Below, piece after piece: positions 18,846 to 48,641 of a DNA stretch of 64,000 bases (the first letter of the stretch is position 1; each line of letters starts with the position of its first letter). Source of the stretch: an uncultured Eubacteriales bacterium (lineage in GTDB: Bacteria > Acidobacteriota > Aminicenantia > Aminicenantales > Aminicenantaceae). Below the pieces are notes generated by a model. The model was not told where the DNA came from. It searched no databases and saw only the letters and a program-made list of their open reading frames with translations. The position numbers were made by a program, and so were the translations under genes. The stretch covers positions 7,456-71,455 of the forward strand of contig CAZYBE010000001.1 in the NCBI GenBank assembly GCA_964645765.1, given 5' to 3'.

Positions 18846-18851
18846 ATAATT

Positions 18852-29517: not shown

Positions 29518-29579
29518 CTTTATCCCTATTTATTTCCTGAACACCGTCACGCCGTTAATATAAACATAATATTTCATCT

Positions 29580-29694
29580 ATCATCGCGAGGAGCGGAGCG
29601 ACGTGGCGATCTCATCAAACTAAGAGATTGCCACGCCCTTCGGGCTCGCAATGACAGGCTCATCACCACGCTCCCTCTGGTCGCTCGCCATGAC
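29580..29694. repeat. Family-2 palindromic hairpin element (composite, 115 bp) in the pyrH-frr intergenic region
   Basis: Arms aTCATCGCGAGGagcggagcgaCGTGGCGATCTCAT / GAGATTGCCACGccCTTCGggCTCGCAATGAC, plus a third related arm. Confidence 0.8.
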
Positions 29695-29721
29695 TATGTA
29701 ACAAAATTCATTGCGTCTATA

Positions 29722-30441
29722 TCAATAGACTTTTGTCCCGACTTTCTGGCCCAAAACAGCCCTCTTGATATTTCCTCTCTTCTTGAGACTGAAAACAATA
29801 ATCGGCAAGTTATTATCCTTGCAGAGAGAGATGGCCGTTGTATCCATAACCTTCAGCCCCCTCTTAATGACATCCAGATAGCGGATAGTCTCAAACTTCT
29901 TGGCGGTCTTATCTTTTAAAGGGTCCGCGGTATAAACGCCATCAACCTTTGTCGCTTTCAATATCACCTCAGCCTTGATCTCCAGAGCTCTTAAGGCTGA
30001 GGCTGTGTCTGTGGTGAAATAGGGACTTCCGGTGCCGGCGCTGAAGATGATAGCCCTCCCTTTCTCAAGATGCCTTATCGCCCTTCTCCTAACAAAAGGC
30101 TCGGCAACAGCTTTGATCTCAATCGCAGAGATGTGACGGGTGTTGATACCCTCCTTCTCCAGAGCATCTTGAAGAGCAATTCCATTCATGACCGTGGCCA
30201 GCAAGCCAATATAGTCGGCCGAAGCCCTGTCCATCCCAGTCTCAACTCCAACCACTCCCCGAAAGATATTCCCGCCTCCAATCACGATGGCCACCTGGAC
30301 ACCCAAATCGTGGATTTCTTTTATCTCTTGAGCAATGGACTTCGCTGTTTGGAGGTCGATACCAAAGCTGAGTTTGCCGAGGAGAGATTCTCCTGAGAGT
30401 TTTAACAAAATTCTTTTATATGCCGGCTCAATCTGAGGCAT
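29722..30441 (-). CDS. pyrH: UMP kinase
   Basis: 239 aa with '[12 protein letters not shown]' and '[10 protein letters not shown]' motifs. Confidence 0.95.
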
Positions 30442-30453
30442 GGTCAGTATTCT

Positions 30454-31050
30454 TTAAGATTCGCCCAGCTCAAACCGGGCAAACCGTTTTATGCGAATGT
30501 TCTCGCCAAATTTGGCGATATGAGAAGCAACAAGCTCCCTGACCGAAATCTTGTCGTCCTTGACGTAAGGCTGGTCCATTAAACAGACTTCCTGGTAGAA
30601 TTTGCTGAGTTTCCCCTGGATAATCTTCTCCACAACTTCTGGCGGCTTTTTTGAATCCTTGAATTGTTCGCGGATAATATCCTTTTCCTGCTCTAAAACC
30701 TGCGCGGGAACATCCTCTGAGGAGATGTACCTGGGCTTTGAGGCAGCGATATGCAAGGTAAGGTTTTTCACCAACTCTTGGAATTCTTGGTTACGGGCGA
30801 CAAAGTCTGATTCACAATTGACCTCGATAAGCACTCCAATCCTTCCGTTGAGATGAATGTAAGAACCGATTATCCCTTCTGCTGTCTCCCGGCTCATCTT
30901 ATCCTTGGCCCGGGCATATCCTTTTTTTCTCAAAACGAGAATAGCCTTTTCGATGTCTCCCTCGCTCTCCTGCAGAGCCTCCTTGCATTCCATGACTCCG
31001 ATCCCAGTCCGCTGCCGGAGCTCTTTGACCTTCTCAGTTGTGATTTCCAT
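30454..31050 (-). CDS. tsf: Translation elongation factor Ts
   Basis: 'VKELRQRTGIGVMECKEALQESEGDIEKAILVLRKKG'. Start placed at MEIT, which follows a GAGGAAGGA SD. Confidence 0.9.
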   Translation of the reverse strand: MEITTEKVKELRQRTGIGVMECKEALQESEGDIEKAILVLRKKGYARAKDKMSRETAEGIIGSYIHLNGRIGVLIEVNCESDFVARNQEFQELVKNLTLHIAASKPRYISSEDVPAQVLEQEKDIIREQFKDSKKPPEVVEKIIQGKLSKFYQEVCLMDQPYVKDDKISVRELVASHIAKFGENIRIKRFARFELGES

Positions 31051-31064
31051 AGCTTTTTCCTTCC

Positions 31065-31877
31065 TCAAACTGGCTTCTTGGGCTCACTTCCCATCCTCTC
31101 TTCACCTTCTTCAGAAGAAGATTCTGAAGCGCTAAGGGTTTCTTCCTTCGGTGGAGCCTCCTCCTTTTTGGCTTGCTGAAGCTCTTTCTGGATTTTATTC
31201 TTTTTGCCTTCGATGATAGCCTCAGAGACTTTCGATGTGAACAATTCAATGGCTCTGACAGCGTCATCATTTCCCGGAATCGGGTAGTCAATATTCTCCG
31301 GGTTGCCGTTGGTGTCAACAATAGCCACAATCGGAATGTTGAGCTTCTGCGCTTCGAGTATGGCTATCTCTTCTTTGGTCGAATCTATGATGAACATAGC
31401 TCCGGGGAGCTCGGCCAAATGTTTTATTCCCCCCAGATTCCTGCTGAGCTTTCTATAGACTTTTTCCATTTTCGACTGCTCTTTTTTTGAAAGAAGCTCC
31501 CATCGCCCGTCTTCTTTCATCTCTTCCAGCTCGACCAGCCTGCCCACACCGCCTTTGACGACATTGAAGTTGGTCAGCAATCCACCCAGCCATCGCTGGT
31601 TGACATAGCAGGATTCGCACTTCTGAGCAAGATCTCGGATGATGTCTTGAGCCTGTTTCTTGGTTCCGACCAGGAGAATTTCTTTGCCGCTCTCGACAAC
31701 GGTTCTTATGAAGTTAAGCGCTTCCTTGAAAATTTTAATCGTCTTCTGCAGGTCGATGATGTAGATTCCATTCCTCTGGCCAAAGATGTAATCCTTCATC
31801 TTCGGGTTCCACCTTTTTGTCTGGTGGCCAAAATGGACGCCAGCTTCTAAAAGTTCTTTCATCGTGACTGAAACCAA
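31065..31877 (-). CDS. rpsB: 30S ribosomal protein S2
   Basis: '[22 protein letters not shown]' is the canonical S2 N-terminus. Confidence 0.95.
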
Positions 31878-31891
31878 CTTAAATCCTCCCT

Positions 31892-32296
31892 TTATCTCTT
31901 GTGGTACTGAGGAGCCTTGCGGGCGCCCAGCAACCCATATTTCTTTCTTTCCTTGATCCTTGCGTCTCGGGTCAAAAGCCCGGCTCCCTTAAGTGTGGGC
32001 CTCAACTCCCTGTTGAACTCGGTTAATGCCCTGGCGATTCCCAATCGAATCGCATCAACCTGTCCGCTCACTCCGCCGCCGTTGACCCTGATGAAGATAT
32101 CAAATTTGCTCTCTGTCTCTGTCAGGCGGAGAGGCTGCTTGATGACGTGCTTTTGTCTTTCCAGGTGGAAATATTCATTGAACTGGCGAGGTGTTTTGTT
32201 CACGTATAAAGTGATGTCTCCTTTTCCAGGGCGGAGAAAGACCCTCGCCACTGATGTTTTTCTCTTCCCTGTTCCGTAATACTGGATTAAGCTCAA
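31892..32296 (-). CDS. rpsI: 30S ribosomal protein S9
   Basis: '[16 protein letters not shown]' and the C-terminal '[10 protein letters not shown]'. Confidence 0.95.
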
Positions 32297-32304
32297 TTTT
32301 CCTC

Positions 32305-32733
32305 CTAAAACTCGTGAACCTGGGGTTTTTGAGCCTGATGAGGATGGTCAGGGCCTTTGTAGACCTTGAGCTTTTTATACAAAGCTCGGCCGAGCTTCCC
32401 TTTGGGAACCATTCCCCAGACTGCTCTTCGAATGACCTCTTCAGGTTTCTTCTCTAAAAGCTCTTTAAGGGTTTTGACTTTCAGCCCTCCGGGGTAAAGA
32501 GAATGAGAATAATATTTTTTGTCTTCAAGCTTTTTCCCGGTGACATGAATTTTTTCGGCATTGATGACAATCACGAAATCTCCGCAATCAAGAAAAGGGG
32601 TAAACTTAGGCTTCCTCTTTCCCCGGAGCAAAACTGCAATTTCAGTGGCCAGCCTTCCCAGGGTTTTTCCTTGGGCATCAATCAGCCACCAATTCTTGCG
32701 GATCTCACTTTTCTTCAGACTATACGTTTTCAT
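32305..32733 (-). CDS. rplM: 50S ribosomal protein L13
   Basis: '[32 protein letters not shown]'. Confidence 0.95.
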
Positions 32734-32849
32734 CGCTTTAAATCTCGGATTGTATGCCCTGAGGCAACGACGATGTTCTAAAATACAAAATCTTCAGCGA
32801 GTTGTCAACCTTTAACTGGCTAAAATCAATATCTTAACCTATTTGTTCA

Positions 32850-33542
32850 TCAATGAACCCAGACTCTTGCTCTTCTCCTTCTCATAAAAACTTTGACCAG
32901 GGCGATTCCAATCAAGAAACCGCCGACATGAGCAAACCAGGCTACGCCGCCTCCAATGCCGATATTCATCACCTGGCCCACAAACCAAAGTCCGAGAACG
33001 ATAAAAGCGGGCACAGGAATAATCCAGATAAAAACAAGGGTCAAAACCCTTGCCGCCGGGTAGAGGACAAAATAGGCACCGAGCACACCGGCAATGGCAC
33101 CGCTGGCTCCAATCATCGGGACCTTGGAAGAGGGATGGAAGATGATGTGAACAAGGCTCGCCCCCAATCCTGAGATAAGATAGAAAAAAATAAATCGAAT
33201 TGACCCGAGAAAATCCTCGATATTGTTGCCGAATATCCAGAGGTAGAGCATATTGCCGAAAAGATGGAGGAAGCCACCGTGAAGGAACATCGCTACGAGG
33301 AGTGTCAAAGGAGGAGATATTCGAGCGAGAGAGCCTCCCTGAAAACGAATATCGACAGAAGTGAAATGCGTGAGCTCGTAAGGAATGGCCCCCATCTTGT
33401 AAACATAGTATTGAAGCCCATACTGCATTCCCTGGGGAGAAAAAAATTGATAGAGGAAGATTAAGATATTCGCTGCGATAAAGACAACAGTGATTAAAGG
33501 AAATCGAGAAGTAGGGTTTTCATCTTTAAGCGGAATAAACAT
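32850..33542 (-). CDS. Rhomboid family intramembrane serine protease
   Basis: 'GASGAIAGVLGAY' catalytic Ser motif and an 'AHVGGFLIG' His helix. Confidence 0.85.
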   Translation of the reverse strand: MFIPLKDENPTSRFPLITVVFIAANILIFLYQFFSPQGMQYGLQYYVYKMGAIPYELTHFTSVDIRFQGGSLARISPPLTLLVAMFLHGGFLHLFGNMLYLWIFGNNIEDFLGSIRFIFFYLISGLGASLVHIIFHPSSKVPMIGASGAIAGVLGAYFVLYPAARVLTLVFIWIIPVPAFIVLGLWFVGQVMNIGIGGGVAWFAHVGGFLIGIALVKVFMRRRRARVWVH

Positions 33543-33603
33543 TTTTTATGGATTATGAAGGGAAAACTATCAAAAATTTATTTTGAAAGAAAGGTTTTTC
33601 TTC

Positions 33604-34629
33604 TTATTTCTTCCCTCTCAATTCGTCTTCAAGTCTTTTTCTTTCTGCGGCCCTTTTCCTTACTTCATCGCCTTTCTGTCCCCATCTATCCGCTTCAGCA
33701 AGGTATAAATCTTCCTTCTCTGGATAAAGGCCGACAAAAACGTTCCTGTAGAGGATGTTGAGGTATGTGTATGGGTCCGCAAAATTGGGATCCAGCTCAA
33801 TAGCTTTCATCAAGGCTTTTTCACTTTCTTCCCCACACTTTTGCTTTTCTTCATAAGAAAGAACATTCTGGAGACGAAAAGCCTTCCAATTTCGATTCAC
33901 TCCTATAGCATACCAGATTGAAGCATTATTCGGGTCAAATTTGAGGCGAAGCTTATGATATTCATAAGCTTTATCAAAGATAGGAGCGGGTTTGATATTG
34001 TCGTAGAATTGGGCAGCGTAAGCATAACCTTCCGGGTTTTCAGGGTCGAGCTCGATCCGTCTCAGATACATCTCTTCGGCTTTCTGGAATGGGGTCTTGA
34101 TGGCTCTCCCTTCTGCATCTTTCCTTTGCTCATCTGACCCGCCAGAATATTTTTGATAGAATTGGGCAACAACATAGTAGTTCCCCATGTTGGTCGGCTC
34201 CATCTGGAGAATCCTGAGGTATAATTTTTCAGATTCTTCAAAATTCTGCAGCTTATCGTACATATCGGCCAAGGAGTAAATAATTTGCTTGTTGTTAGGA
34301 AAGAGTTCAAGCGCCTTTTTTAATGCTTCCAGAGCTTTATCTGCCTTCTGTTTATTCTGCGCGCTCTCATCGCCGGGCTTGTAAAGGCTCTTGTAGCTTT
34401 CGCCGAGATATTGATAAGCTTCGGCAAGATTCGGGTTGCTGGCGACTGCCTTCTCATAATAATCGATGGCCTTGCGGTATTCTTCATTTTTGAAATACTG
34501 GTTTCCCTGGGAAAAATTATAATTGGCTGTTAGTCTGCTGACCTTTAGCTTCCCGCAGCCTGATGAAGCAAAGATTAAGCCCAACGCGATGAAAACGAAC
34601 AACGCTGTTCTTGACGCTTTGCTCGACAT
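33604..34629 (-). CDS. TPR-repeat lipoprotein
   Basis: Start set at MSSKAS with an AGGAGG SD; lipobox-like 'FASSGC'; multiple TPR motifs. Confidence 0.6.
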   Translation of the reverse strand: MSSKASRTALFVFIALGLIFASSGCGKLKVSRLTANYNFSQGNQYFKNEEYRKAIDYYEKAVASNPNLAEAYQYLGESYKSLYKPGDESAQNKQKADKALEALKKALELFPNNKQIIYSLADMYDKLQNFEESEKLYLRILQMEPTNMGNYYVVAQFYQKYSGGSDEQRKDAEGRAIKTPFQKAEEMYLRRIELDPENPEGYAYAAQFYDNIKPAPIFDKAYEYHKLRLKFDPNNASIWYAIGVNRNWKAFRLQNVLSYEEKQKCGEESEKALMKAIELDPNFADPYTYLNILYRNVFVGLYPEKEDLYLAEADRWGQKGDEVRKRAAERKRLEDELRGKK

Positions 34630-34731
34630 CCTGACCTCCTTTGTCTTCAAGTCCATTCTTCTCTAAAAATTTAATTTATAAAAATATGCCATCAAAGTCA
34701 AGAAAAACAGGGAGTTGCACTCTTCCCCGAT

Positions 34732-36057
34732 TCAGCCCTTTCTCATGAGCAAGCGGATGGGCGTTCCCCAGAAACCAAACTTTTCCCGCAAAAGTTTGGT
34801 GAAAAATTTCTGATAGGAAGGAGCAAGGGATAGCCGCGAAGAACTGAAGAGGGCAAATGTCGGAGGGAGGGTTCCCTTTTGAGTCATGTATTTTATCCTG
34901 AATCTTTTCTTGTCTTTTGAGAGAGGGGAATAATTCTTGTTCACCCCAGATAAAAATCTGTTCAGCTGCGATGTTGCTACTCTTTTGCACCCGTTCCGGT
35001 AGACTTGCTCGGCGAAGTCAAGAATATTTATAACTCTTTGCCCGGTTAGAGCCGAGATAAAGAGAAGGGGCGCGTAACTGACAAAGTCGAGCCTGGCATA
35101 AACTCGGTTCCTAAAATTCTCTGAAGTCTTATGGTCTTTCTCGACCAAATCCCACTTGTTCAGGGCAATGAGTAACGGTCTCCCCGATTCATGGGACAAA
35201 TGGGCGATGGCCAAATCTTGACGGGTGGCAAATTCCCTGGCATCCATGGTCAAGCAAACAACATCCGCCTGGGTGATATCCTTCTTGGCTTTGATGATAC
35301 TCGCCTTTTCTCTTCTATCGCGGGTGCGGATCAGTTTCTTTATTCCTGCGGTATCGACCAGGACGAAAGCTTTTTTCTCCCTGAAGATCATAGTATCGGT
35401 GCTATCCCTGGTCGTTCCAGGAATCTCACTAACGATGAGCCTCGGCTCCCCGCAGATGCGGTTGACGATAGAAGATTTTCCGACATTGATCCGGCCGACA
35501 ATGGCTATCCGCAGCGGCTTTGTTTCCCTTTTTTCTGTAACAGGCCCGGGCAAGACTTCAATAAGGCCTGACTCAAGAATCTCCAGATTTCTTTTATGCT
35601 CGGCTGATATGGCAAAGATTTTCTCCGCTCCCAGCCGGTAATAATCGCCAAGCTTGGCTTCCTCGGGTGGAGTATCGATCTTGTTGACCACGACAAAAAC
35701 CGGCTTGTTCAACTTTTTCAAAGAAAAATAAAGCTCCTCCTCTGCCGGAAGGAGTTCGCGCTTTCCATCCAGGACAAAAAGGACAAGGTCTGCCTTCTCG
35801 GCAGCCTGCTTTGCCTTTTCTCTGACCAAAGACGAGATGGGGTCTTCTGCAGAATCGTAAAATCCTCCGGTATCAACCAGGATAAACTTCTTTGTGTCCA
35901 AGAAGCAGATGGAAGAGACCTGGTCGCGGGTCATGCCGGGCAAGGAATGAACAAGCGATTTGCGCTCTTTCGAAAGACGGTTAAAGAGGGTGGATTTCCC
36001 GACATTGGGGAAGCCGATGATGGCAACATTCGGTAGTTTTTTCATCGAGAAGCTCAT
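34732..36057 (-). CDS. der: Ribosome biogenesis GTPase Der (EngA)
   Basis: Two tandem GTPase domains ('GFPNVGKSTLFNRL' and 'GRINVGKSSIVNRI') plus a KH-like C-terminus. Confidence 0.95.
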   Translation of the reverse strand: MSFSMKKLPNVAIIGFPNVGKSTLFNRLSKERKSLVHSLPGMTRDQVSSICFLDTKKFILVDTGGFYDSAEDPISSLVREKAKQAAEKADLVLFVLDGKRELLPAEEELYFSLKKLNKPVFVVVNKIDTPPEEAKLGDYYRLGAEKIFAISAEHKRNLEILESGLIEVLPGPVTEKRETKPLRIAIVGRINVGKSSIVNRICGEPRLIVSEIPGTTRDSTDTMIFREKKAFVLVDTAGIKKLIRTRDRREKASIIKAKKDITQADVVCLTMDAREFATRQDLAIAHLSHESGRPLLIALNKWDLVEKDHKTSENFRNRVYARLDFVSYAPLLFISALTGQRVINILDFAEQVYRNGCKRVATSQLNRFLSGVNKNYSPLSKDKKRFRIKYMTQKGTLPPTFALFSSSRLSLAPSYQKFFTKLLREKFGFWGTPIRLLMRKG

Positions 36058-36083
36058 CCTTTTTCAGGTCAAGAATGCAGAGG

Positions 36084-37486: not shown

Positions 37487-37516
37487 TTCTTTTCTTTGTC
37501 TCTCAGAGATTAAATT

Positions 37517-37864
37517 TGGAGGCGGCGGGAATCGAACCCGCGTCCGAAGACATTCAACACGAGGCTTCTACATGCATATCCTCTCCTTCAATCTCGTTCT
37601 GCAGCGTCCGAAGAGGAGGGACACAGCCGAACCAGCCCCGATGGAACTTCGCTTGCCAGGCCCAGGACCAACCCGGCTTGCTATCCCGCTTGTCGACGTT
37701 TCTCAAGCGCCGCAGGAGAGCACTTGAAAACCGGCATGCCTATTCTTTAGGCAGCAACAGGCAGAGTTTCTGCGCTTAGTTTTTTTTCCACCGTTTAACG
37801 AGGTGGGTGGGACCTCGACATGCCGCCTTTGTCTCATTGTCTCCGTCGAATCCTGTTCGCCCCC
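37517..37864 (-). ncRNA. ssrA: tmRNA (transfer-messenger RNA)
   Basis: 5' GGGGGCGAACAGGATTCGACGG and 3' tRNA-like end ...GGACGCGGGTTCGATTCCCGCCGCCTCCA. An internal reading frame ends ...GAA ACT CTG CCT GTT GCT GCC TAA, giving a tag that ends ...ETLPVAA. CCA is not encoded. Confidence 0.9.
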
Positions 37865-37960
37865 ATAACTCAAGCTAAGATTATATTTTGACCTGAAATC
37901 TTTGTCAACACATTGAATTTCAAAGGAACGATCTTTCTTTCCGTGGTGAAAAGCCTCGTT

Positions 37961-38113
37961 ATGGATCAGGCTGGGTGTCTCGAAGACACGCCGCTTTTGC
38001 CCCAGCGAGTCAAAAGCGGCTCGATTCCAGGCTTCGCTCTCCTCTCCCTTCGGTCGAGGAACCATGCCCGCTCAGCCCTCCATACGGTCTTCTCAACACC
38101 CAGCCTGATCCAT
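37961..38113. repeat. Family-1 repeat, copy D (about 153 bp), adjacent to the tmRNA 5' end
   Basis: Perfect 17-bp TIRs atggatcaggctgggtg / cacccagcctgatccat. Conserved hairpin and core. Confidence 0.85.
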
Positions 38114-38165
38114 TTCATACCACGAATTTGCGGATTCTTCTAATTTTAAATATTAAAAACGAATT

Positions 38166-39152: not shown

Positions 39153-39230
39153 TGGCGGGGCCGACGAGACTCGAACTCGCGACCTCTGGCGTGACAGGCC
39201 AGCGTTCTAACCAAACTGAACTACGACCCC
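39153..39230 (-). tRNA. tRNA-Asp (anticodon GTC), CCA encoded
   Basis: GGGGTCGTAGTTCAGTTTGGTTAGAACGCTGGCCTGTCACGCCAGAGGTCGCGAGTTCGAGTCTCGTCGGCCCCGCCA, with anticodon loop CTGTCAC. Confidence 0.9.
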
Positions 39231-39301
39231 GCCGCAGGGTAATAAAATTATAGTCACAACATACCAGAGTTGCAATAGTTTTGTAGGTAATGAATACACT
39301 T

Positions 39302-39337
39302 GAGATTGCCACGCTCCCTTCGGGAGCTCGCAATGAC
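39302..39337. repeat. Family-2 element, half copy (right arm only) next to tRNA-Asp
   Basis: GAGATTGCCACGctCCCTTCGGGagCTCGCAATGAC matches the right arm of the 29580 element. The UUCG-capped mini-hairpin is preserved. Confidence 0.7.
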
Positions 39338-39362
39338 GACACAGAGCAAAAAAGAAAGAGCC

Positions 39363-40262
39363 CTACATTTTTTCAAGGGCAGCGATTCTTGCCTCGACGG
39401 GAGGATGAGTGCTGAACATGTTGTTGACCGCTCCCTTCAAATCCTTGAGCGGGTTGACGATGTAGAGATGGGCTGTCGCCTTGTTGGCTGCCTCCAGAGG
39501 CTCGGTGTCAGCGGCAATCTTCTTCAAAGCAGAGGCAAGGCCAGGAGGATAGCGGGTGAGAAAAGCGCCGTTGGCATCAGCCAGGAATTCTCTCTTGCGG
39601 GAAATGGCAAAGCGAATGACCTGGGCGATAAGCGGAGAAAGAACAGCCAGCACAAGTCCGGCCACAACCAGTATGGCAGCAGCATTGCCGCCTTTTCCCC
39701 TATTGGTTCTTGCTCTTCTCCTCCCTCCTCCCCAGAAAAAACTCCTGAGAATCCAGTCGCTGAGCAAGGCAACGACTCCGACCATGACCACGGCCAAGGT
39801 CTGAACGAGGACATCGTAATTCTTGATGTGGGACATCTCATGGGCAATCACCCCTTCGAGCTCCACCCTGTTCAGTTTCTGGAGCAAGCCTTTGGTGACG
39901 ACGACGACTGAATTTTTCGGGTTTCTACCCGAGGTGAAAGCATTGGGCGCAGTGTCATCGATAATATAACAGCGAGGCTTGGGCAGGCCGGCGGCAATAG
40001 CCAGGCCTTCAACGACATTGTAGAGATAAGGATAATCTTGCTTCTCAACCGGCTTGGCCCGGCTCATGGCCAGAACGATTTTATCGCTGTAATAATAACT
40101 GGCAAAAGTCGAGGCCACAGCGATGATGGCGGCCAGAATCAATCCCTGAGTTCCGAAGCCTGTCAGCTCTCCAAAAAGCCAGGCCAAAAGAAAAACCCAG
40201 CTAAGAAAAAACAGAATAAGAAAGAACGATTTCCATTTGTTTCGGGCAATCTGTTCATACAT
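39363..40262 (-). CDS. htpX: M48-family zinc metalloprotease (HtpX homologue)
   Basis: 'GVIAHEMSHIKNYD' HExxH motif with four TM segments. Confidence 0.9.
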   Translation of the reverse strand: MYEQIARNKWKSFFLILFFLSWVFLLAWLFGELTGFGTQGLILAAIIAVASTFASYYYSDKIVLAMSRAKPVEKQDYPYLYNVVEGLAIAAGLPKPRCYIIDDTAPNAFTSGRNPKNSVVVVTKGLLQKLNRVELEGVIAHEMSHIKNYDVLVQTLAVVMVGVVALLSDWILRSFFWGGGRRRARTNRGKGGNAAAILVVAGLVLAVLSPLIAQVIRFAISRKREFLADANGAFLTRYPPGLASALKKIAADTEPLEAANKATAHLYIVNPLKDLKGAVNNMFSTHPPVEARIAALEKM

Positions 40263-40280
40263 CCTGAATTCGGTCGGCGA

Positions 40281-40835: not shown

Positions 40836-40905
40836 ATTTGTCTCCTCAAAAGCGAAAAATTTTATCCTAAATAATAAACTATTTTGAAAGGCAAAAGTCA
40901 AATAC

Positions 40906-41056
40906 GGGGCTCAGGCTAAGCTGTGAGAAAACACGCAGCTTTTGTCCCGGCGAGACAAAAGCTGCTCGGTTTCAGGCTTCGCTCTCCTCTCCCTTCGGTC
41001 GAGGAACCATGCCCGCTCAGCCCTCAAACGGTTTTCTCACAGCTTAGCCTTCGCCC
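40906..41056. repeat. Family-1 repeat, copy E (about 151 bp) in a divergent promoter region
   Basis: TIRs ggctaagctgtgagaaaac / gttttctcacagcttagcc (19 bp perfect). The hairpin carries compensatory changes (cgcagcttttgtcccggcgagacaaaagctgc), and the conserved core is present. Confidence 0.85.
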
Positions 41057-41147
41057 TGGCCAATATTCTTTTAAAAAAGCCAACTTATTGTTAATTTTAA
41101 TTCGGCTAGATTGACAAAAAAGATGTGCTTCAGCTTAATTAAAAAAA

Positions 41148-41176
41148 TTGACTTGACTTGTACACAATGGTATATA
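41148..41176 (+). promoter_or_regulatory. Near-consensus sigma-70 promoter TTGACT-17-TATATA for the citrate synthase gene
   Basis: Hexamers with a 17-nt spacer about 65 bp upstream of the ATG. An AGGAGG SD lies at the gene start. Confidence 0.6.
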
Positions 41177-41242
41177 TAAACGTCTCTTTTGAATCAATAA
41201 TTATAAAATTTATGCCCTAATCTCTAAAAGGAGGTTTATTAA

Positions 41243-42571
41243 ATGGCTTCTCTAAAGCAAAAGCTTGCTGCAAAAATCGGCCCTATGCGCGAAAAGGTCG
41301 GCGCAATCATGAAAGCGCACGGCGAGATGAAGATTTCCGACGTCAACGTAGCCCAGGCTTACGGCGGCATGCGCGGTGTCAAGTGCATGGTTTGGGAAAC
41401 ATCCGCCCTTGACCCCATGGAAGGTATTCGTTTCCGAGGCTTCACCATTCCTGAGCTTCGAGAAAAGCTGCCCAAGTCTCCCAAGGGAGAAGAGCCTCTG
41501 CCGGAAGGAATCTTCTACCTCTTGCTCCTCGGCGAAATGCCTACAGACCAGGATGTCAAAGAGATTACAAAAGAATGGCAGAAGAGGAGCAAACTCCCGA
41601 GATACTTGGTCAATGTCCTTAAAGCCATCCCCAAAGATGTCCATCCCATGACCCAGTTCTCGTTAGGGATCCTCACCCTCCAGAAAGACTCTATCTACGC
41701 TCAGAAGTACACAGAGGGAATAAGCAAGATGGAATACTGGGACTCGACCTACGAGGACGTGATGAACCTTCTGGCCAAGCTCCCCTCGATTGCAGCCTAT
41801 ATCTACCGCAAATCTTACAAAGGCGCCAAGCACATTCCCGCCAATCCCAAGCTTGACTGGGGCGGAAACTTTGCCCATATGCTCGGTGTTAAGGACGAAG
41901 CCTTCAAAGAACTCATGCGCCTATACCTTGTCATTCACAGCGACCATGAAGGCGGAAACGTCTCGGCCCACACCTCTCATCTCGTCGGCTCAGCTCTTTC
42001 CGACGCCTACTATTGCCTCTCGGCTGGCATGAACGGCTTAGCCGGTCCTTTGCACGGACTGGCCAACCAGGAAGTCCTGCGCTGGATCTGGGACTTGAAG
42101 GAAAAAATTGGTGACGAGCCAACCAAAGACCAGCTGAAAAAATATGTTTGGGATACGCTCAATGCCGGCCAGGTCGTTCCCGGATATGGCCATGCTGTTC
42201 TCCGCAAGACAGACCCCAGATACACAGCCCAGCGAGAGTTCGCCCTCAAGCACCTTCCTGACGACAAAATCTTCAGAATCGTCAGCACTCTCTACGAAGT
42301 CGTTCCCGATATTCTTATGGAGCAAGGCAAGGCGAAAAACCCCTGGCCGAATGTCGACGCTCACTCCGGATGTCTGCTCTACCACTACGGCGTGAAAGAA
42401 TGGGATTTCTACACAGTCTTCTTCGGCGCTTCTCGTGCTATGGGCGTGCTCTCCCAGCTAATCTGGAGCAGGGCGCTCGGGCTTCCCATCGAAAGGCCCA
42501 AGAGTGTGACCACGGACTGGATCGAAGGCCAGATCAAGCAGGCCCAGGCTGTGCCTAAACAGCCAAGCTGA
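41243..42571 (+). CDS. Citrate synthase (eukaryotic/mitochondrial-type)
   Basis: 442 aa. 'GYGHAVLRKTDPRYT' and 'HSGCLLYHYG' catalytic His/Asp regions resemble the eukaryotic-type CS N-terminus. Confidence 0.9.
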   Translation: MASLKQKLAAKIGPMREKVGAIMKAHGEMKISDVNVAQAYGGMRGVKCMVWETSALDPMEGIRFRGFTIPELREKLPKSPKGEEPLPEGIFYLLLLGEMPTDQDVKEITKEWQKRSKLPRYLVNVLKAIPKDVHPMTQFSLGILTLQKDSIYAQKYTEGISKMEYWDSTYEDVMNLLAKLPSIAAYIYRKSYKGAKHIPANPKLDWGGNFAHMLGVKDEAFKELMRLYLVIHSDHEGGNVSAHTSHLVGSALSDAYYCLSAGMNGLAGPLHGLANQEVLRWIWDLKEKIGDEPTKDQLKKYVWDTLNAGQVVPGYGHAVLRKTDPRYTAQREFALKHLPDDKIFRIVSTLYEVVPDILMEQGKAKNPWPNVDAHSGCLLYHYGVKEWDFYTVFFGASRAMGVLSQLIWSRALGLPIERPKSVTTDWIEGQIKQAQAVPKQPS

Positions 42572-42622
42572 AGCTGGTTAAAAGCAGATCAATTCAGCAG
42601 CGCAGAAAAAGAATTTTTAAAA

Positions 42623-42648
42623 GGGGGCATTCCAGTGCCCCCTTTTTT
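42623..42648 (+). terminator. Rho-independent terminator after citrate synthase
   Basis: GGGGGCA-ttccag-TGCCCCC stem-loop followed by TTTTTT. Confidence 0.8.
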
Positions 42649-42781
42649 ATATCGTCTGTTCACATAGACAAAACACTCTTTCAAACCATCTTTGTCAAAA
42701 AAACTTTGAGTTAGCCAAACTGCAAAAGCTTAAGGCTTCAGCCTTTTTTTTTGATAAGTTGCTCAAAATAAGACAAGGAAA

Positions 42782-42869
42782 GTTGACTTAAATCAAATCT
42801 GTTGCCTCTAAGTCAACTTATCTTGACTTAGAAGGGAAAATCGAATATAAATCAAGCTAGGTTGACTTA
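42782..42869 (+). promoter_or_regulatory. Operator-like array of four GTTGACTTA motifs (one forming a palindrome TAAGTCAAC-ttatc-TTGACTTA) upstream of, and overlapping, the Fic start codon
   Basis: Motifs at 42782-42790 (fwd), 42809-42817 (rev), 42823-42830 (fwd) and 42861-42869 (fwd, overlapping the ATG). Confidence 0.5.
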
Positions 42870-44020
42870 TGGACAATAGAGTTGGAAAATTTATAGTTCA
42901 ACCTGCTGGATATAAGGCATTTATTCCTAATCCGTTACCACCAGAACCTCCTATTAATTTTGACGACGAATTGCAATCTTTATTATCAAAAGCAGATAGA
43001 ACTCTCGCCAGGCTAGATGGAATTACAACTGTTTTACCTAACCCAGACCTTTTTATTGCCATGTATGTGAAAAAAGAAGCGCTTTTAAGCTCTCAGATCG
43101 AGGGAACACAGGCTTCCTTGGAGGGGATTCTTGAATTTGAAGCAGATTTACCACCCAAGGAAGACATTAATGAGGTAAAAGAGGTCATAAATTATGTAAA
43201 GGCAATGAATTATGGAATTGAAAGGTTAAAAGAATTGCCGATGTCTTTAAGGCTTATTAAGGAAATCCATAAAATCTTGTTGGAAGGGACAAGAGGGGCA
43301 CATAGAGATCCCGGAGAATTTAGAAGGTCTCAAAACTGGATTGGTCCTCCTGGTGCTTCTTTGAATGAAGCGATCTATATTCCACCGCCACCTGATATGG
43401 TTCTTTCAACAATGGGTGAGCTTGAAAAATTCTTGCATAGTAAAGATAACATTCCACCCTTAGTAAGAATTGCTTTGATTCATGCCCAATTTGAAACGAT
43501 TCATCCCTTCATAGATGGCAACGGAAGAGTTGGCAGGCTTCTTATAACTTTCTACCTTTTCTGGAAAGGAATCTTAGCAAGACCGCTTTTATATTTGAGC
43601 TTTTATCTAAAAAAGAACAAAGCAGATTATTACGACACGCTTATGAAATTACGCCTGGAAGGAGCATATGAAAATTGGCTAAAATTTTTTCTGAACGGTG
43701 TAAGTGAAACGTCAGAAGAGTCAGCGAACACTGCCCGAGAAATAATAAAATTAAAAGACGATCTGATAACGAAAATCTATGAGAACTCTATATCAAGTGT
43801 TTATGCTGTTAAGCTTATAGATTTACTTTTTTTGACTCCGTTGATTAGTGTCAAAGATGCATATAAAAGATTGAAAATTTCAAATCAAGCAGCAAATGAA
43901 TTGTTCAAGAGATTTGAAAGCATCGGCATTCTAAAAGAGATAACAGGGAAACGAAGATATAAAAGGTATATTTTTAAAAGCTACGTGGACATTATAGCAA
44001 GGGGAACAGAGGGGGATTAA
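42869..44020 (+). CDS. Fic family protein (class II, intramolecular inhibitory motif) with C-terminal wHTH
   Basis: Canonical Fic motif 'HPFIDGNGRVGRLL'; upstream inhibitory 'SSQIEG' (S/TxxxEG/N); 383 aa. Confidence 0.9.
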   Translation: MDNRVGKFIVQPAGYKAFIPNPLPPEPPINFDDELQSLLSKADRTLARLDGITTVLPNPDLFIAMYVKKEALLSSQIEGTQASLEGILEFEADLPPKEDINEVKEVINYVKAMNYGIERLKELPMSLRLIKEIHKILLEGTRGAHRDPGEFRRSQNWIGPPGASLNEAIYIPPPPDMVLSTMGELEKFLHSKDNIPPLVRIALIHAQFETIHPFIDGNGRVGRLLITFYLFWKGILARPLLYLSFYLKKNKADYYDTLMKLRLEGAYENWLKFFLNGVSETSEESANTAREIIKLKDDLITKIYENSISSVYAVKLIDLLFLTPLISVKDAYKRLKISNQAANELFKRFESIGILKEITGKRRYKRYIFKSYVDIIARGTEGD

Positions 44021-44023
44021 GGC

Positions 44024-45136
44024 TTGAACAAAAAAGTAACAGACAAATTGGAGAAAATCCTAACTGGTTACTTTAAGGAAATCCACAAGACCTACACAGC
44101 AGGAGACTTCAGGGAGGAAAGTTTTTATCCAGCTTTTAAACCACTGGTTGAAGAATGCTCCAAGCTTCTTCCCCTTCAAGAAGCTGCTAATGTTCTAATC
44201 CAGCCCAAAAAGGAAGAAGCTGGCTTACTTGATTTTCGTATCGGGAAAAATGGAGAAATCGTAGGATATATTGAAGCAAAGTCGCCTGATGCCAACCTCA
44301 ATGAGGTTGAAGATTCTGAGCAGCTAAAAAGATATCGAGAATCGCTGCCTAACCTGATTTTAACCAACTTCTTAGAATTCAGATTATACAGGCAGGGAAA
44401 TTTAATAGATAAAGTGGAAGCGGGCCGCCAATTCACCCTGCAAACCTTAAAGTTTCCACCCAAGCCTGAGAAGCTAGATTTATTCTTCGGGCTACTACAG
44501 AAATTCTTCCTCTATTCCATACCAAAGATTCGGAAATCATCCGACCTTTCTGTGGAGCTGGCGAACCGAACACGGCTCCTCGAGCACAGCCTGCAAGAAG
44601 AGCTTAAAAGAGAAAATGAGGAAGTCACAAGATTCTACAAAGCCTTTCAGGAAGAGCTCATCGAGTCTTTGACCAAAGAAAGATTCGCCGACCTCTACGC
44701 TCAGACCATTGCCTACGGCCTTTTCGCTGCCAGGATGAAGGTTCAGAATGGATTTAAAAAGGAAGTTGCCTGGCAGTTCATTCCAGAAAGCTTATCCCTG
44801 CTCAGAGAAATTTTTTATTCCTTCACCGGGCCCAATCTGCCAGAATCTATGTCCTGGCTTGTGGACGAAATAGCTCAGGTGCTGGAAAAAGCTGACATCC
44901 CGGCAATTCTTCAAGAATTTAAAACTGTGCGCTGGGAAGAAGACCCTGTCATTCACTTCTATGAAACCTTCCTTAAAACTTATAATCCCACTGAAAGGCA
45001 AAGGCTGGGAGTTTATTACACTCCTCTGCCCGTGGTTTCCTATATTGTTAAATCCATCCATAAGCTTTTAAAGGAGAAATTTGGAAAGACAGAAAGGGCC
45101 GAAAGCTTTCTCTCGATGAAATCAACCATTATTTGA
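44024..45136 (+). pseudogene. 5' remnant of an MmeI-like type IIG restriction-modification enzyme (PD-ExK nuclease + helical linker + start of gamma-class N6A methyltransferase)
   Basis: TTG start 3 nt after the Fic stop. N-terminal 'LLDFRIG...GYIEAK' PD-(D/E)xK motif. MTase motif X/I 'FYETFLKTYNPTERQRLGVYYTPLPVVSYIV'. The ORF stops before motif IV (NPPY/F) and the TRD, and only about 200 bp of non-coding DNA follows. Confidence 0.6.
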
Positions 45137-45335
45137 AAATAGCAAAAGCCATTCGCCTGACCATGGAGATTCAGAAGAAAATCGATAAAATCTTTTAAAA
45201 GCAATCTCATTCACTTTATAAAATGAATGTGCTATAGTCTTTTTGCAAATTTAATCCCGATGGGTCATGATTAAGGTTGACTTCTTTTTCTATTCAGTGG
45301 TTAAATTCTAGCTTCTCTCAAGAGGAGGATAGAAA

Positions 45336-46391
45336 ATGGAATACAAAATCTGTCTCATCGGCTGCGGCACAGTCGGGCAGGGTCTTGTGGAGATTCTTGT
45401 TGAAAAAAATGATGAATTGAGGAACAAGCTGGATTTTGAACCAAAAATCGTCGCCATCTGCGATAAGCTCAAGGGGTCTCTTCTCATTCCAGAAGGCATC
45501 AATATAAAAAAGCTTCTTCAGCTCCTCCAGCAAAAGAGGAGAATCGATGAATACCTGGGAGAAAAGCATAACGAGGCAGAGGGGGAAGACCCTCTGGAAA
45601 TTATTGAAAAATGCGAGGCTGACATCGTTGCCGAATTGACCTACACGGATATCAAGACCGCTGAGCCGGCCACGAGCTATATCAGGAAAGCCCTCAGAAC
45701 AGGAAAACATGTCGTCACCTCCAACAAGGGTCCGGCCGCTCTCTATTATGCCGAATTGAAAAAACTGGCGCGCAAGAACGATGTCTTCTTCAGGATTGAA
45801 GGGACGGTGATGAGCGGAACCCCAGTTTTCAGTCTCTTCGAGAACGGATTTGCCGGAAACGAGATTAGAGAAATACGAGGAATCCTGAACGGAACCACGA
45901 ATTTCATCCTCTCCAAAATGGAAGAGGAGAACATGGATTACGGAAAGGCTTTAAAACTCGCTCAAAACTTAGGCTTAGCTGAAGCTGACCCGACAGCAGA
46001 CGTTGAAGGCTACGATGCTCTGGCTAAAATCATCATCCTCTCCAACGTCCTTCTCGAAGCCAACATCAAGCCTGCTGATGCCAAAAGGCAAGGAATCACC
46101 TCTCTGACCAAGAAAAAAATCCAGGCGGCAAAAAAGCAGGGATACAGATACAAGCTTGTCGCTTCAGCCAGAAAAGAAAACGGCAAGGTTTCGGCCAGTG
46201 TCTCTCCTCAAAAGCTCCCTCTCTCCGACCCTCTGACTGGAATCATGGGGGCCAACAATGCTTTGTCCTTTGACCTCGATTTGCTGGGAAAAGTCATCAT
46301 CCAGGGCCCTGGAGCAGGAAAAACCGAGACGGGCTATTCCATCCTGGTCGATATGCTGGGCATTCACCGGCGTCTTTCAAAACAAAATTAA
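45336..46391 (+). CDS. hom: Homoserine dehydrogenase (short form, no ACT domain)
   Basis: 'IGCGTVGQG' NAD-binding motif; 'ILNGTTNFIL' and 'AEADPTADVEGYDALAKI' homoserine-DH signature. Confidence 0.8.
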   Translation: MEYKICLIGCGTVGQGLVEILVEKNDELRNKLDFEPKIVAICDKLKGSLLIPEGINIKKLLQLLQQKRRIDEYLGEKHNEAEGEDPLEIIEKCEADIVAELTYTDIKTAEPATSYIRKALRTGKHVVTSNKGPAALYYAELKKLARKNDVFFRIEGTVMSGTPVFSLFENGFAGNEIREIRGILNGTTNFILSKMEEENMDYGKALKLAQNLGLAEADPTADVEGYDALAKIIILSNVLLEANIKPADAKRQGITSLTKKKIQAAKKQGYRYKLVASARKENGKVSASVSPQKLPLSDPLTGIMGANNALSFDLDLLGKVIIQGPGAGKTETGYSILVDMLGIHRRLSKQN

Positions 46392-46457
46392 GAGCTCTGT
46401 AGAATAAAAATAAGCTTGTAAGCATAAATTGAAGAATCCAGAAGAAGGAGTGAGAGC

Positions 46458-47693
46458 ATGCACTTCAAGCTCTTAAGCAAAAAGGACCTCAAGGCTATGG
46501 ATGCTTTGGTCGATTCCTACGGCGGGGCAAAAGAGATTTCAAACGAGATTCAGTCCAGGAGGGATTATCCAACCAGGAAGAAAATCGCCGCTCAAAAAGG
46601 ATTCGCCGAGATGCTGGAGAAGGCAGAGCAATACGCCAAAAAATTTGCCAAGGTTGAGGACTTCGTCGAAAAAAACAGAATCCGCGTGACCAGGAAGGGA
46701 ATCTGCACCACCCAGGTTTCAGGATTCCAGGCCGCCCGCCCCACTTTTGACTGCGTCAGAAGAGTTGCGGAGAACGCCGATGTGCTTTTCCCGACAGAGA
46801 TGATTTCAGTTGTGAGTCTGACCGACCATTATGTCTACAGCGGCGACCTGCTGGCGACCCTGGCCATGGCTGAGAATATTCTTAGCGCAAGCAAGTTCTG
46901 CTCGACCAACCTCATCGGGACTCCGCTTCCAGAAGAGCGATTTGCAAGGCTGGAGAAGGCGACAGGCGAGAAATTCGAGCGCAGAGACCTGGGAAAGGGA
47001 TTGAGCCAGATCATCCTGAAGAACATGGGCACACCCTACGGAAACTTAGGAGGGGTCGAGGTCGGAAATAACAACCATCTCGTCTATCTCGACGGAGTGA
47101 CAAGGGCAGCCCTGGAAACAGGCGCGAATTTCTTCCTGAACCCGAGCTGGTCAACCATCGTCGCTGCCTGCTGCTACGCAAGGGAAATTCCCAATCTCTC
47201 TTTCAAGATATCGATGCTCCTCTCCACTCAAAACGCCATCCAGTTGCGGATGCTCTTGAATATCTTCAAGGAATATCTGCGCGATGACGGGACAACGCCG
47301 ATCTACGAGATTAACATCGGAAATGCCGCAACTGCCGAGACTTTTATCCAATGCTACGACGAGATAGAAGCTTCCGGCCTTCCCAAAATCCATCTTGCTG
47401 CCCATCTCAGAATCAATCCTGATTTGGGCCTGGCCGATTTCAACTGGACTGAGAATGCCTTCAAGGTGCTCGATGCTGGCAGAGATTTGACAATCAAATA
47501 CGAGAGTGACGGAGAATCCCGGCCTTATGACACCATGCAAGCCTATTTCCTCTCTGATGAAGAGAGGGATGAAAAGGCTGAGCTCGTTGGCGATGTCATC
47601 TACCATAAATGCCTCCGCTGCGACCAGGATGCCAAAGAAATCATGAGAAGAGGGCACGAGGCAAGGTTTGCCAGGGTTTCCTATAAGAAATGA
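46458..47693 (+). CDS. Hypothetical enzyme (411 aa, Cys-rich, unknown family) in the hom/PLP cluster
   Basis: Well-formed ORF with an AGGAG SD. No motif recognised with confidence; conserved-looking Cys pairs ('VAACCYARE', 'CLRCDQD'). Confidence 0.5.
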   Translation: MHFKLLSKKDLKAMDALVDSYGGAKEISNEIQSRRDYPTRKKIAAQKGFAEMLEKAEQYAKKFAKVEDFVEKNRIRVTRKGICTTQVSGFQAARPTFDCVRRVAENADVLFPTEMISVVSLTDHYVYSGDLLATLAMAENILSASKFCSTNLIGTPLPEERFARLEKATGEKFERRDLGKGLSQIILKNMGTPYGNLGGVEVGNNNHLVYLDGVTRAALETGANFFLNPSWSTIVAACCYAREIPNLSFKISMLLSTQNAIQLRMLLNIFKEYLRDDGTTPIYEINIGNAATAETFIQCYDEIEASGLPKIHLAAHLRINPDLGLADFNWTENAFKVLDAGRDLTIKYESDGESRPYDTMQAYFLSDEERDEKAELVGDVIYHKCLRCDQDAKEIMRRGHEARFARVSYKK

Positions 47694-47737
47694 ATCCTTC
47701 GAACTTGACGAGTCCAAAAAGAATCAGGAGATGAGGG

Positions 47738-48529
47738 ATGGATTTGGGCATCAAAAACAGAGTGGCTCTTGTGGCTGCAGCGAGCCGCGGACTGGGAAAG
47801 GCAATTGCCTTCCAGCTTTCGAGGGAAGGCGCAAAGGTCGTCATCTGCGCCAGGAATAAGGAAAGGCTTTTCAAGACGAGGGATGAAATCGCAGCGGGAA
47901 CAGGCGCGCAGGTAAAAGCTTTCGTTGCTGATGTCGCGGATAGAGCCAAGGTGAGGAGCCTGGTCCAGCAGACTGTGGAAGCCTTCGGCACTGTGGACAT
48001 TCTGGTCTCGAATGCCGGAGGACCCCCATCAGGCATGGCCGAGGACTTCGCTCTGGATGACTACCAGAAGGCTCTGGAACTCAACCTTTTGAGCACTGTC
48101 AGCCTCTGCTATGAAGTCATGCCCTTGATGAAGAAGCAGCGCTGGGGAAGAATCATCTTCATGACTTCAGTCTCTGCCAAGCAGCCGATCGAAAACCTCA
48201 TTCTCTCCAACACTTCGAGGGCAGGCGTCCTGGGCTTCTCCAAGTCCCTTTCAAGCCAGCTCGCGCCTTACGGGATAACTGCCAATTCTGTCTGTCCTGG
48301 ATATACCAGGACGGAAAGGGTCGAAGAGCTTGCCAGGTCTTTTGCGGAAAGCGGGAAAGGCACGGTCCATGACTTCTACAGGAATATCGAGAAATCCATT
48401 CCCATTGGTCGCTTGGCAAGCCCTGAAGAAGTTGCCAATGCCGTGGCTTTCCTTGCTTCTGAGAGAGCGAGCTATATCACTGGTGTGGCCCTTCAGGTCG
48501 ATGGCGGCTATATCAAATCTCTTTTTTGA
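47738..48529 (+). CDS. SDR family oxidoreductase (FabG-like)
   Basis: 'VALVAAASRGLGKAIA' TGxxxGxG variant, 'NAGG', and a catalytic Ser/Tyr/Lys 'YxxxK'-type region. Confidence 0.85.
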   Translation: MDLGIKNRVALVAAASRGLGKAIAFQLSREGAKVVICARNKERLFKTRDEIAAGTGAQVKAFVADVADRAKVRSLVQQTVEAFGTVDILVSNAGGPPSGMAEDFALDDYQKALELNLLSTVSLCYEVMPLMKKQRWGRIIFMTSVSAKQPIENLILSNTSRAGVLGFSKSLSSQLAPYGITANSVCPGYTRTERVEELARSFAESGKGTVHDFYRNIEKSIPIGRLASPEEVANAVAFLASERASYITGVALQVDGGYIKSLF

Positions 48530-48557
48530 TACACGGCAAGATTTGATGTAAATATAT

Positions 48558-48641
48558 GTCATCGCGAGGCGCGAAGCGCCGTGGCGATCTCATTAAATAA
48601 ATAATGAGATGGCCACGCTCCTTTCAGGAGCTCGCCATGAA
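48558..48641. repeat. Family-2 palindromic hairpin element (84 bp) between the SDR and cupin genes
   Basis: GTCATCGCGAGGcgcgaagcgcCGTGGCGATCTCAT-loop-ATGAGATGGCCACGctcctttcaggagCTCGCCATGA. The inner mini-hairpins show compensatory changes relative to copy 1. Confidence 0.8.

Follow-up and report, generated by a model that had tools for sequence, protein, structure and literature searches.

We analysed a window of 64,000 nucleotides from an uncultured Eubacteriales bacterium (placed by GTDB in the Aminicenantaceae, Acidobacteriota; contig CAZYBE010000001.1, positions 7,456 to 71,455), in which palindromic hairpin repeats lie between pyrH and frr, between the genes for a short-chain dehydrogenase/reductase (SDR) and a cupin, and beside a tRNA-Asp gene. 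A first-pass annotation of the sequence had described three copies of a long imperfect palindrome at these sites and had read them as a transcribed, structured RNA element. The repeats are real, and they are present at the coordinates and in the gene contexts it described, in agreement with a shuffle test and a covariance model. What did not stand is the count, as the sites hold 3 + 2 + 1 units of one module and not three long palindromes. We favour, with a probability of about 0.7, the reading that the sites are non-autonomous, non-coding palindromic DNA repeats of the repetitive extragenic palindrome (REP) and MITE (miniature inverted-repeat transposable element) kind, recently inserted between genes.

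Repeat units at the three sites

The pyrH-frr spacer of the window measures 204 nt and the SDR-cupin spacer 159 nt. The first holds a composite element termed E1, the second a composite termed E2, while a solitary unit, U4, lies beside the tRNA gene (Table 1). The motif GAGATNGCCACG occurs five times in the window against 0.8 expected occurrences, and five was reached by none of 100 shuffles. A covariance model trained on 47 units (46 from other organisms, with U4 as the only one from the window) recognised exactly six units of ~34-38 nt in the 64 kb, with E-values of 7e-18 to 6.5e-4; the next match had an E-value of 0.2. The location of the repeats was thus correctly given by the first-pass annotation, but their ends were not, since AT-rich arms extend both composites beyond the palindromes. 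Neither a partner unit nor arms were detected in the surroundings of U4. The RNA folding that the annotation proposed as a check predicts stable hairpins, with the folds of the sites far more stable than those of shuffled sequences (z -4.2 to -8.1): -64.3 kcal/mol for the whole of E1 (z -4.2), in which the two arms pair with one another, and -54.0 kcal/mol for the whole of E2 (z -8.1).

Table 1. Genes, composite elements (E), arms and repeat units (U) at the three sites of the window; scores are those of the covariance model.
Feature	Position	Strand	Bits	E-value	Description
frr	28960-29517	-			Pfam RRF; co-oriented with pyrH, flanks E1
E1 composite	29556..29724				pyrH-frr spacer; left arm, U1, 8-nt spacer, U2, U3, right arm
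E1 left arm	29556..29578				TAATATAAACATAATATTTCATC; inverted partner of right arm; same arm in orthologue L280
U1	29579..29614	-	34.8	5.7e-9	tagged end outward
U2	29623..29656	+	47.6	3.3e-13	GAGATTGCCACG-CCC-TTC-GGG-CTCGCAATGAC
U3	29662..29694	+	19.4	6.5e-4	5' half degenerate
E1 right arm	29695..29724				AT-rich terminal inverted-repeat arm (..TAACAAAATTCATTGCGTCTATATCA), common to E2
pyrH	29722-30441	-			Pfam AA_kinase; co-oriented with frr, flanks E1
tRNA-Asp	39153-39230	-			beside U4
U4	39301..39338	+	61.8	6.9e-18	solitary; between htpX stop and tRNA-Asp
htpX stop	39363	-			other neighbour of U4
SDR gene	47738-48529	+			Pfam adh_short; co-oriented with cupin gene, flanks E2
E2 composite	48544..48671				SDR-cupin spacer; truncated left arm, U5, 12-nt AT spacer, U6, right arm
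U5	48557..48592	-	47.4	4e-13	tag outward; apex GCGC-GAA-GCGC on plus strand
U6	48605..48642	+	49.2	1e-13	apex CTCCT-TTC-AGGAG; tag degenerate (ATGAA)
cupin gene	48689-49051	+			Pfam Cupin_2

Comparison with close relatives

In three near-identical strains (L001, L002 and L004) the pyrH-frr spacer measures 239 nt and holds one extra unit. A deletion of 39 nt between two repeats of CTCGCGA accounts for the difference from E1 of the window, and U1 is its chimeric product; the tag of U1 is degenerate, with ATCAT in place of GTCAT. A further strain copy (L280) carries a plain two-unit dimer at the same pyrH-frr site, and therefore the second dimer of L001 is nested in the centre of the first. U2 belongs to this nested extra dimer, which the orthologous copy in L280 does not have, and a unit identical to U2 was found in an unrelated deltaproteobacterial metagenome-assembled genome (MAG; L022). 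U3, by alignment of E1 with E2, was the right-hand unit of the dimer from the start and is orthologous to U6.

Relatives whose Frr proteins are 83-92% identical have pyrH-frr spacers of 47-101 nt without units; in those at 90%, 87% and 83% identity the spacer is 47-61 nt long and holds no trace of the element. The SDR-cupin spacer is likewise empty in two relatives (28 nt in L336 and 14 nt in L337, at 87% and 85% identity). Half an element occupies it in a third (L335, 89% identity), and a fourth (L334, 96% identity) has a fuller left arm at the E2 site. Taken together, the analysis shows an element that is present in many copies and in unrelated flanks, independent of its neighbours, lineage-specific in position, present or absent and variable in unit number from one close relative to the next, and able to gain nested units. 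Since the spacers of relatives are empty and unit number varies between strains, the elements are best read as recent mobile insertions rather than as conserved operon regulators. Judged by these comparisons, E1 does not serve pyrH and frr as a conserved regulator, and regulation of the two genes appears unlikely to be the reason for its existence.

Two observations concern the pyrH-frr site itself. In L125 (Frr 92% identical, positions 9899-10001), arm-like sequences are both kept and an unrelated 35-nt centre replaces the two units, so that either the core has been lost there or the arms are older than the units. In the window, the final TCA of E1 (29722-29724) is the stop codon of pyrH (TGA on the minus strand), and therefore the insertion either adjoins the end that the gene originally had or has taken its place. 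REP termini that supply stop codons were reported by Di Nocera et al. (PMC3733652).

The foregoing bears on the alternative that the elements are selected cis-acting RNAs, that is stabilisers, attenuators or RNase targets, which tune the expression of pyrH against frr and of SDR against cupin. Such a role would agree with their position within co-directional gene pairs, where they would be transcribed, and with the very stable RNA hairpins predicted. The family as a whole is also enriched between co-directional and convergent genes, with 72 co-directional, 29 convergent and 15 divergent gene-pair settings according to crude open reading frame (ORF) calls. Moreover, REPs of E. coli are established stabilisers of mRNA, as summarised in PMC3733652 and PMC12306157. 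A selected role is difficult to reconcile, however, with the absence of the element from the same spacers of relatives with 83-90% identical proteins, with unit numbers that differ between strains and with the scatter of the unit over unrelated contexts in many phyla and phages.

Anatomy of the unit and covariation of its stems

The basic unit measures ~32-45 bp across the family. On one strand, here called strand A, it reads GAGAT-N-GC / CAC / G-(variable stem)-(loop)-(variable stem)-C / TC / GC-N'-ATGAC, the 5' side of the internal loop being CAC, less often TTC or CGC, and the 3' side TC. On the opposite, tagged strand the order is a YGTC tag, a 5-bp AT-Y-GC stem, a fixed internal loop, a variable GC-rich apical hairpin, the returning stem and a CTC tail, and the asymmetric internal loop has GA on one side and GUG, GAA or GCG on the other.

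Several of these features are conserved at positions that the search patterns left free. The last base of strand A is C in 149 of 152 units from other genomes; 410 of 415 units have the C of the GTC in the tag, and 379 of 415 have the G before AGAT, which is the outermost base of the 3-nt CTC tail. ATGAC is followed by a purine in 400 of 415 units. The tagged strand begins with TGTC in 73% and with CGTC in 23% of units, followed by AT (304 of 415 units have a T next to GTCAT on its outer side, and 96 a C). The AT/AT pairs at the start of the stem are invariant in the six window units and in the 47-unit alignment, although the scan patterns fixed these bases, so that their support from other genomes is not independent.

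The first-pass annotation had noted that the inner hairpins co-vary between copies, and this is borne out. Of the 152 units from other genomes, 145 have a Watson-Crick match between N and N', the middle pair of the basal stem (T:A 109, C:G 30, G:C 6), again without being forced by the pattern. The apical segment is highly variable yet palindromic, with a perfect stem of at least 5 bp from the closing G-C in 112 of 269 distinct sequences as against 0.6% of shuffles. In a comparison of 47 units, all distinct and of one length, standard pairs take up 93.8% of cells against 75.8% in shuffles, and changes on both sides affect 89 cells against 26; the observed values were reached by none of 500 shuffles, and sliding the partner by 1-3 columns lets pairing fall to 30-43%. 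Two composites from metagenomes (L270 and L291) carry new palindromic segments of 24-39 nt within the internal or apical loop of a unit, a sign that nested insertion at the tip may be how the variable apical hairpins lengthen.

The covariation of the N/N' pair and of the apical stem is therefore genuine, and it counts in favour of a cis-acting RNA. It is nevertheless no proof of RNA function, because hairpins of single-stranded DNA (ssDNA) yield the same signal, and the step taken in the first-pass annotation from covariation to a transcribed structured RNA does not hold. Solitary units show no orientation bias with respect to transcription (29 have the tagged strand in the mRNA and 31 the other strand), and mismatches of the wobble type fall about equally on the two strands (8 against 12). 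Both speak against selection at the level of RNA, as does the apical loop.

The apical loop

The caps TTCG, TTTC and GAA, which appeared to differ between copies, are a single loop. With the hairpin in its fully symmetric register, this loop is a triloop, TTC on the GAGAT..ATGAC strand and GAA on the opposite, tagged strand, and the label 'UUCG-capped' given to the elements is an artefact of register that depends on orientation; U2 in the pyrH-frr mRNA reads GAA. In general terms, the loop on strand A is a T-N-C triloop closed by C-G, and triloops are predicted by ViennaRNA too. Among distinct apical segments, strand A has the motif GC-TNC-GC in 37 and the other strand in 1, and C-TNCG-G is found in 35 segments on strand A against 2 on the other.

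The loop of the tagged strand accordingly reads C-GNA-G, often within GCGNAGC. DNA mini-hairpins of the GCGNAGC type have been described as "extraordinarily stable" with a Tm of about 76 °C, whereas the RNA form of a related tetraloop hairpin, r(GCGAAAGC), has a Tm of about 39 °C (PMC13037366), and stability of the mini-hairpin depends on the closing pair (PMC3201870). The loop motif is thus of the type stable in DNA and not of the type stable in RNA. Taken with the empty spacers, the variable unit numbers and the lack of strand bias, this makes a selected cis-acting RNA an unlikely explanation of the elements.

Dimers, arms and the composite element

Adjacent unit pairs in the genome loci are mostly arranged with the tags outward (HH, 44 pairs), and 10 pairs each have the tags inward (TT) or stand in tandem (HT). 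The base flanking the dimer is a pyrimidine on the left and a purine on the right in all 44 HH dimers. The spacers within dimers range from 4 to 74 nt and are kept within a lineage, and beyond the Y and R bases the flanks are unrelated between copies.

The closest named protein relatives of the window's organism mark it as Aminicenantes-like. In this lineage the dimer has arms in addition, and E1 and E2 have a common sequence that extends about 27 nt past the right-hand unit. A metagenome scan for the unit end followed by this tail returned 82 contigs, of which 65 have a recognisable unit directly upstream and 51 the terminal arm motif, and the metagenome matches place the composite family next to at least 56 distinct downstream flanks. 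In 32 full composites, all with different flanks, the order is TAATACAAACGCA with an AT-rich arm, a tags-out dimer, and an AT-rich arm with TGCGTTTGTATTA. The composite is non-coding, has a length of 123-176 bp, or of 121-176 bp when the 32 full copies are measured between the matched end motifs, and ends in 13-bp terminal inverted repeats. The arms are lineage-specific parts of the element. We also considered that dimers throughout the family insert into pre-existing palindromes; this was rejected, as complementarity of the flanks amounts to 3.33 of 12 positions against 3.19 in controls.

Relationship to described repeat families

The elements were rightly assigned by the first-pass annotation to a REP/BIME-type family (BIME, bacterial interspersed mosaic element) of dispersed imperfect palindromic hairpins located inside operons. 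Like the REPs, BIMEs and REPINs of E. coli and Pseudomonas, the units are hairpins of ~35 nt with a conserved unpaired tetranucleotide, their inverted pairs with a short spacer fold into one long hairpin, and they form clusters of variable unit number that are intergenic within operons; for the REP/BIME elements, secondary effects on mRNA stability are known. The REPs of E. coli and Pseudomonas differ in that they carry a GTAG tag, have lineage-specific sequences and are associated with a cognate gene for a REP-associated tyrosine transposase (RAYT) that is itself flanked by REPs, whereas the units described here carry a YGTC tag and no Y1 transposase was found near them.

The tag points instead to the CGTC-tagged REP superfamily, which includes dRS3 of Neisseria and RPE-4 and RPE-6 of Rickettsia (Di Nocera, De Gregorio & Rocco 2013, PMC3733652). 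In both groups the terminal CGTC, often TGTC, is unpaired, stem positions 1-2 are complementary A-T, and HH dimers predominate, with TT rare and HT negligible in the paper. CCTC is a further variant of the published tag. Repeats of both groups lie mostly between co-directional and convergent genes and occur in several phyla, some of their dimers are found inside larger lineage-specific palindromes, and no dedicated transposase is associated with them. A 3-nt unpaired tail is common to both in form but not in sequence, being CCA in the CGTC REPs and CTC here. In the described families CGTC-1 to CGTC-4 the stem runs for 8-9 bp without interruption and the loop measures 4-5 nt, in contrast to the 5-bp basal stem, fixed 3x2 internal loop, variable apical stem of 4-9 bp and mostly 3-nt loop of the present units. 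The published range covers 5 phyla, whereas the core described here is found in at least 17 phylum-level lineages and in viral contigs. By layout, then, the units fit the wider CGTC-tagged superfamily and not its four described families, with the ATTGCGAG...GCAAT core set beside these families by their described features.

The composite, for its part, resembles MITEs such as the Correia elements of Neisseria and Nezha of cyanobacteria in being short and non-coding, with terminal inverted repeats, AT-rich ends, many copies in different flanks and a long hairpin when transcribed. It differs from them in that its core consists of two REP-type units which are dispersed independently as well, and in that no parent insertion sequence (IS) with the same ends was found.

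Search for an enzyme, a parent element or a known RNA

No mobilising enzyme was identified near the units. Within 2.5 kb of the units in the genome loci no recurring gene family was seen in an all-against-all clustering of ORFs, the largest cross-locus ORF clusters having been left unexamined, and in the viral loci the recurring families near units are only genes for structural proteins of a single phage clade. Among 150 unit-adjacent ORFs, a Pfam census counted 197 families, none of them more than twice and no Y1 transposase family recurring. A tblastn search with TnpA of IS608 and the E. coli RAYT gave nothing at E<1 in the window and the first genome loci, which is a weak test. Two units 2.3 kb apart in L021 were considered as the ends of an autonomous element, but the ORFs between them look, by eye, ordinary and cellular and not transposase-like.

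These searches weigh on the alternative of a classical GTAG-type REP or REPIN that depends for its mobility on a RAYT (TnpA-REP) encoded in another part of the genome. The architecture of tagged hairpins, spaced inverted dimers and clusters is the same, and RAYTs cut REPs as ssDNA and act in trans (PMC3479197, PMC8266576). The tag is nevertheless YGTC and not GTAG, no Y1 transposase came up in tblastn or recurred among the unit-adjacent ORFs, and RAYT-linked REPs are lineage-specific, whereas the core is here near-identical across phyla. In the literature, too, no RAYT with CGTC repeats at its flanks was found (PMC3733652). We regard such a mobilisation as very unlikely.

The elements matched no IS end, a check that the first-pass annotation had itself named, and no parent IS with the ends of the composite was found in 2.4 Mb of DNA; the sole distant pair of ends (L227) was rejected as a chance match inside phage ORFs that read, by eye, as terminase genes. 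No Rfam family reached its gathering score for the elements. A SAH riboswitch match within E1 (29582-29680) scored 21 bits against a gathering score of 37 (E 0.06) and was dismissed as a chance match to GC-rich nested hairpins, and a miRNA family that appeared at a relaxed threshold was taken as chance as well. The core sites of integron attC (RYYYAAC...GTTRRRY) are not in the sequences, and the units, being mostly inverted pairs rather than evenly spaced direct repeats, do not follow a CRISPR pattern. Literature searches by sequence string returned unrelated primers only, and the papers on REPs, RAYTs and RepRanger were without the motif.

Rho-independent terminators or attenuators between genes might be suspected from GC-rich hairpins downstream of stop codons, but we find this explanation scarcely tenable: no T/U run follows any unit, a terminator scan was empty at all elements, and the units occur in both orientations and also between divergent genes.

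Distribution across lineages and phages

A genome scan for the exact core with one genome per species matched at least 120 stretches, where ~20 matches are expected by chance (our own arithmetic for 20 specified bases at equal base frequencies), and the core unit was found in at least 120 viral stretches. Together with the composite in at least 56 contexts, this goes far beyond the three copies that the first-pass annotation had listed, and which would have counted against its reading had they been the only ones. Going by record titles, carriers of the exact core come from at least 17 phylum-level lineages, among them Chloroflexota, Bacillota, Bacteroidota, Pseudomonadota (alpha, beta and gamma), Thermodesulfobacteriota, other 'delta' groups, Nitrospirota, Armatimonadota, three groups of the candidate phyla radiation (CPR), Margulisiibacteriota, Spirochaetota, Elusimicrobiota, Atribacterota, Balneolaceae and Rhodothermaceae, KSB1, Melainabacteria, Actinomycetota and Xenobia. 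It is also present in isolates (Leeuwenhoekiella marinoflava DSM 3653, Ochrovirga pacifica, Thioalkalivibrio ALE14 and Vreelandella sulfidaeris) and in closed chromosomes. The unit is rare in collections of plasmids and of cultured phages, with 5 records each.

One phage clade with capsid proteins 74-94% identical contributes about 30 of the viral matches listed, about a quarter. It comprises L143, L154, L156, L209, L232 and about 25 further IMG/VR loci, which have capsid, portal and terminase genes in common. The related phages carry units at differing positions, and we therefore rejected the possibility that members of this clade keep the unit as a conserved feature behind their capsid gene. 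In L156 the arms of an 8-bp inverted repeat (CATGCCAG/CTGGCATG) enclose the unit, shortly downstream of the capsid gene.

A near-invariant core in so many lineages and in phage contigs invites the suggestion that the units are ssDNA signals for the host or its phages, such as priming sites or landing pads for mobile elements, with the core read by a widespread protein. Repeats of the dRS3 type in Neisseria (CGTC-1 family) have been reported as phage integration sites. In addition, ssDNA initiation signals that are read by primases contain C-GNA-G mini-hairpins (PMC13037366). We consider this suggestion highly improbable, since the units show neither positional regularity nor a linked gene family, and their copy number and position vary between close relatives.

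A related possibility, which we put forward tentatively and hold to be rather doubtful, is that the unit is the substrate of a very widespread ssDNA-acting enzyme, either a transposase or nuclease of a mobile element or a replication or repair protein of the host. Such an enzyme would read the invariant 22-nt base of the hairpin, the asymmetric internal loop and the C-GNA-G tip. Its existence would explain the core in at least 17 phylum-level lineages, CPR and phages included, as well as the new palindromic inserts at hairpin tips.

Proposed mode of spread and effects on mRNA

For REP/MITE-type insertions of this kind we propose that copying proceeds via an ssDNA hairpin formed by the tagged strand, which would be recognised by an enzyme acting in trans. 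We infer the ssDNA intermediate because the layout of tag and hairpin is common to REPs that are cut by RAYTs, because the mini-hairpin loop of the DNA type is confined to the tagged strand, and because neither solitary units nor wobble-type mismatches favour one strand.

Within an operon, an inserted element would be co-transcribed as a very stable stem-loop (-54 to -64 kcal/mol) without a U tract. By analogy with the REPs of E. coli, the stem-loop may, as a by-product, act as a barrier to 3' exonucleases or as a substrate of RNase III, and it could shift the ratio of pyrH to frr or of SDR to cupin. Any effect on mRNA is probably such a by-product and not designed control, because close relatives lack the element.

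Several points weigh against recent mobile insertion by this route. In the two comparisons of filled with empty sites, neither a target-site duplication nor a clean excision footprint is readable, the spacers being too diverged; the terminal TA of the composite could be a target duplication or part of the repeat. The ssDNA intermediate is argued from motif chemistry and from analogy with the REP/RAYT and IS200/IS605 systems, and the search near the units for a mobilising enzyme was negative. The depletion of units between divergent genes is also predicted by selection on an effect at the RNA level, and the underlying gene-context statistics come from crude ORF calls. Finally, the 22-nt core is near-invariant across phyla and thus more conserved than ordinary selfish repeats, which the proposal leaves unexplained.

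Other features of the window

Spurious ORFs run through units in the window (39300-39911, plus strand) and in L021 (2224-2406, minus strand), with the peptides ..RLPRSLRELAMT.. and ..SLRGDRF..GSLAMTC. The window also holds an unrelated, larger repeat family of ~120-240 bp at 18609-18850, 21870-22110, 26840-26961, 37959-38114 and 40907-41057, with a partial copy at 4144-4182, whose terminal inverted repeats are GGRTCAGGCTGGGTG..GAGAAAAC / GTTTTC..CACCCAGCCTGAYCC; presumably it is the family that the first-pass annotation counted as its first. One copy of this family directly adjoins a tmRNA gene (37517-37864) with the tag peptide AETLPVAA.

Implications

For the window itself, our analysis removes a tempting but unsupported reading of the hairpins as conserved operon regulators and treats them as recent selfish insertions. 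Translations of the unit (...SLRG..., ...LAMT...) are a likely recurrent source of spurious 'hypothetical proteins' in the annotation of MAGs. The CGTC-tagged REP superfamily, where the question of a mobilising enzyme has stood since 2013, gains a structurally distinct variant. What still surprises is that the 22-nt core is so nearly identical in many phyla and in phages without a known engine. If the core is indeed the substrate of a very widespread enzyme, the units would belong to a pan-bacterial mobile-DNA system. Moreover, with a motif so sharply defined and so widespread, the question of the enzyme becomes testable by comparing presence of the motif with gene content across genomes.

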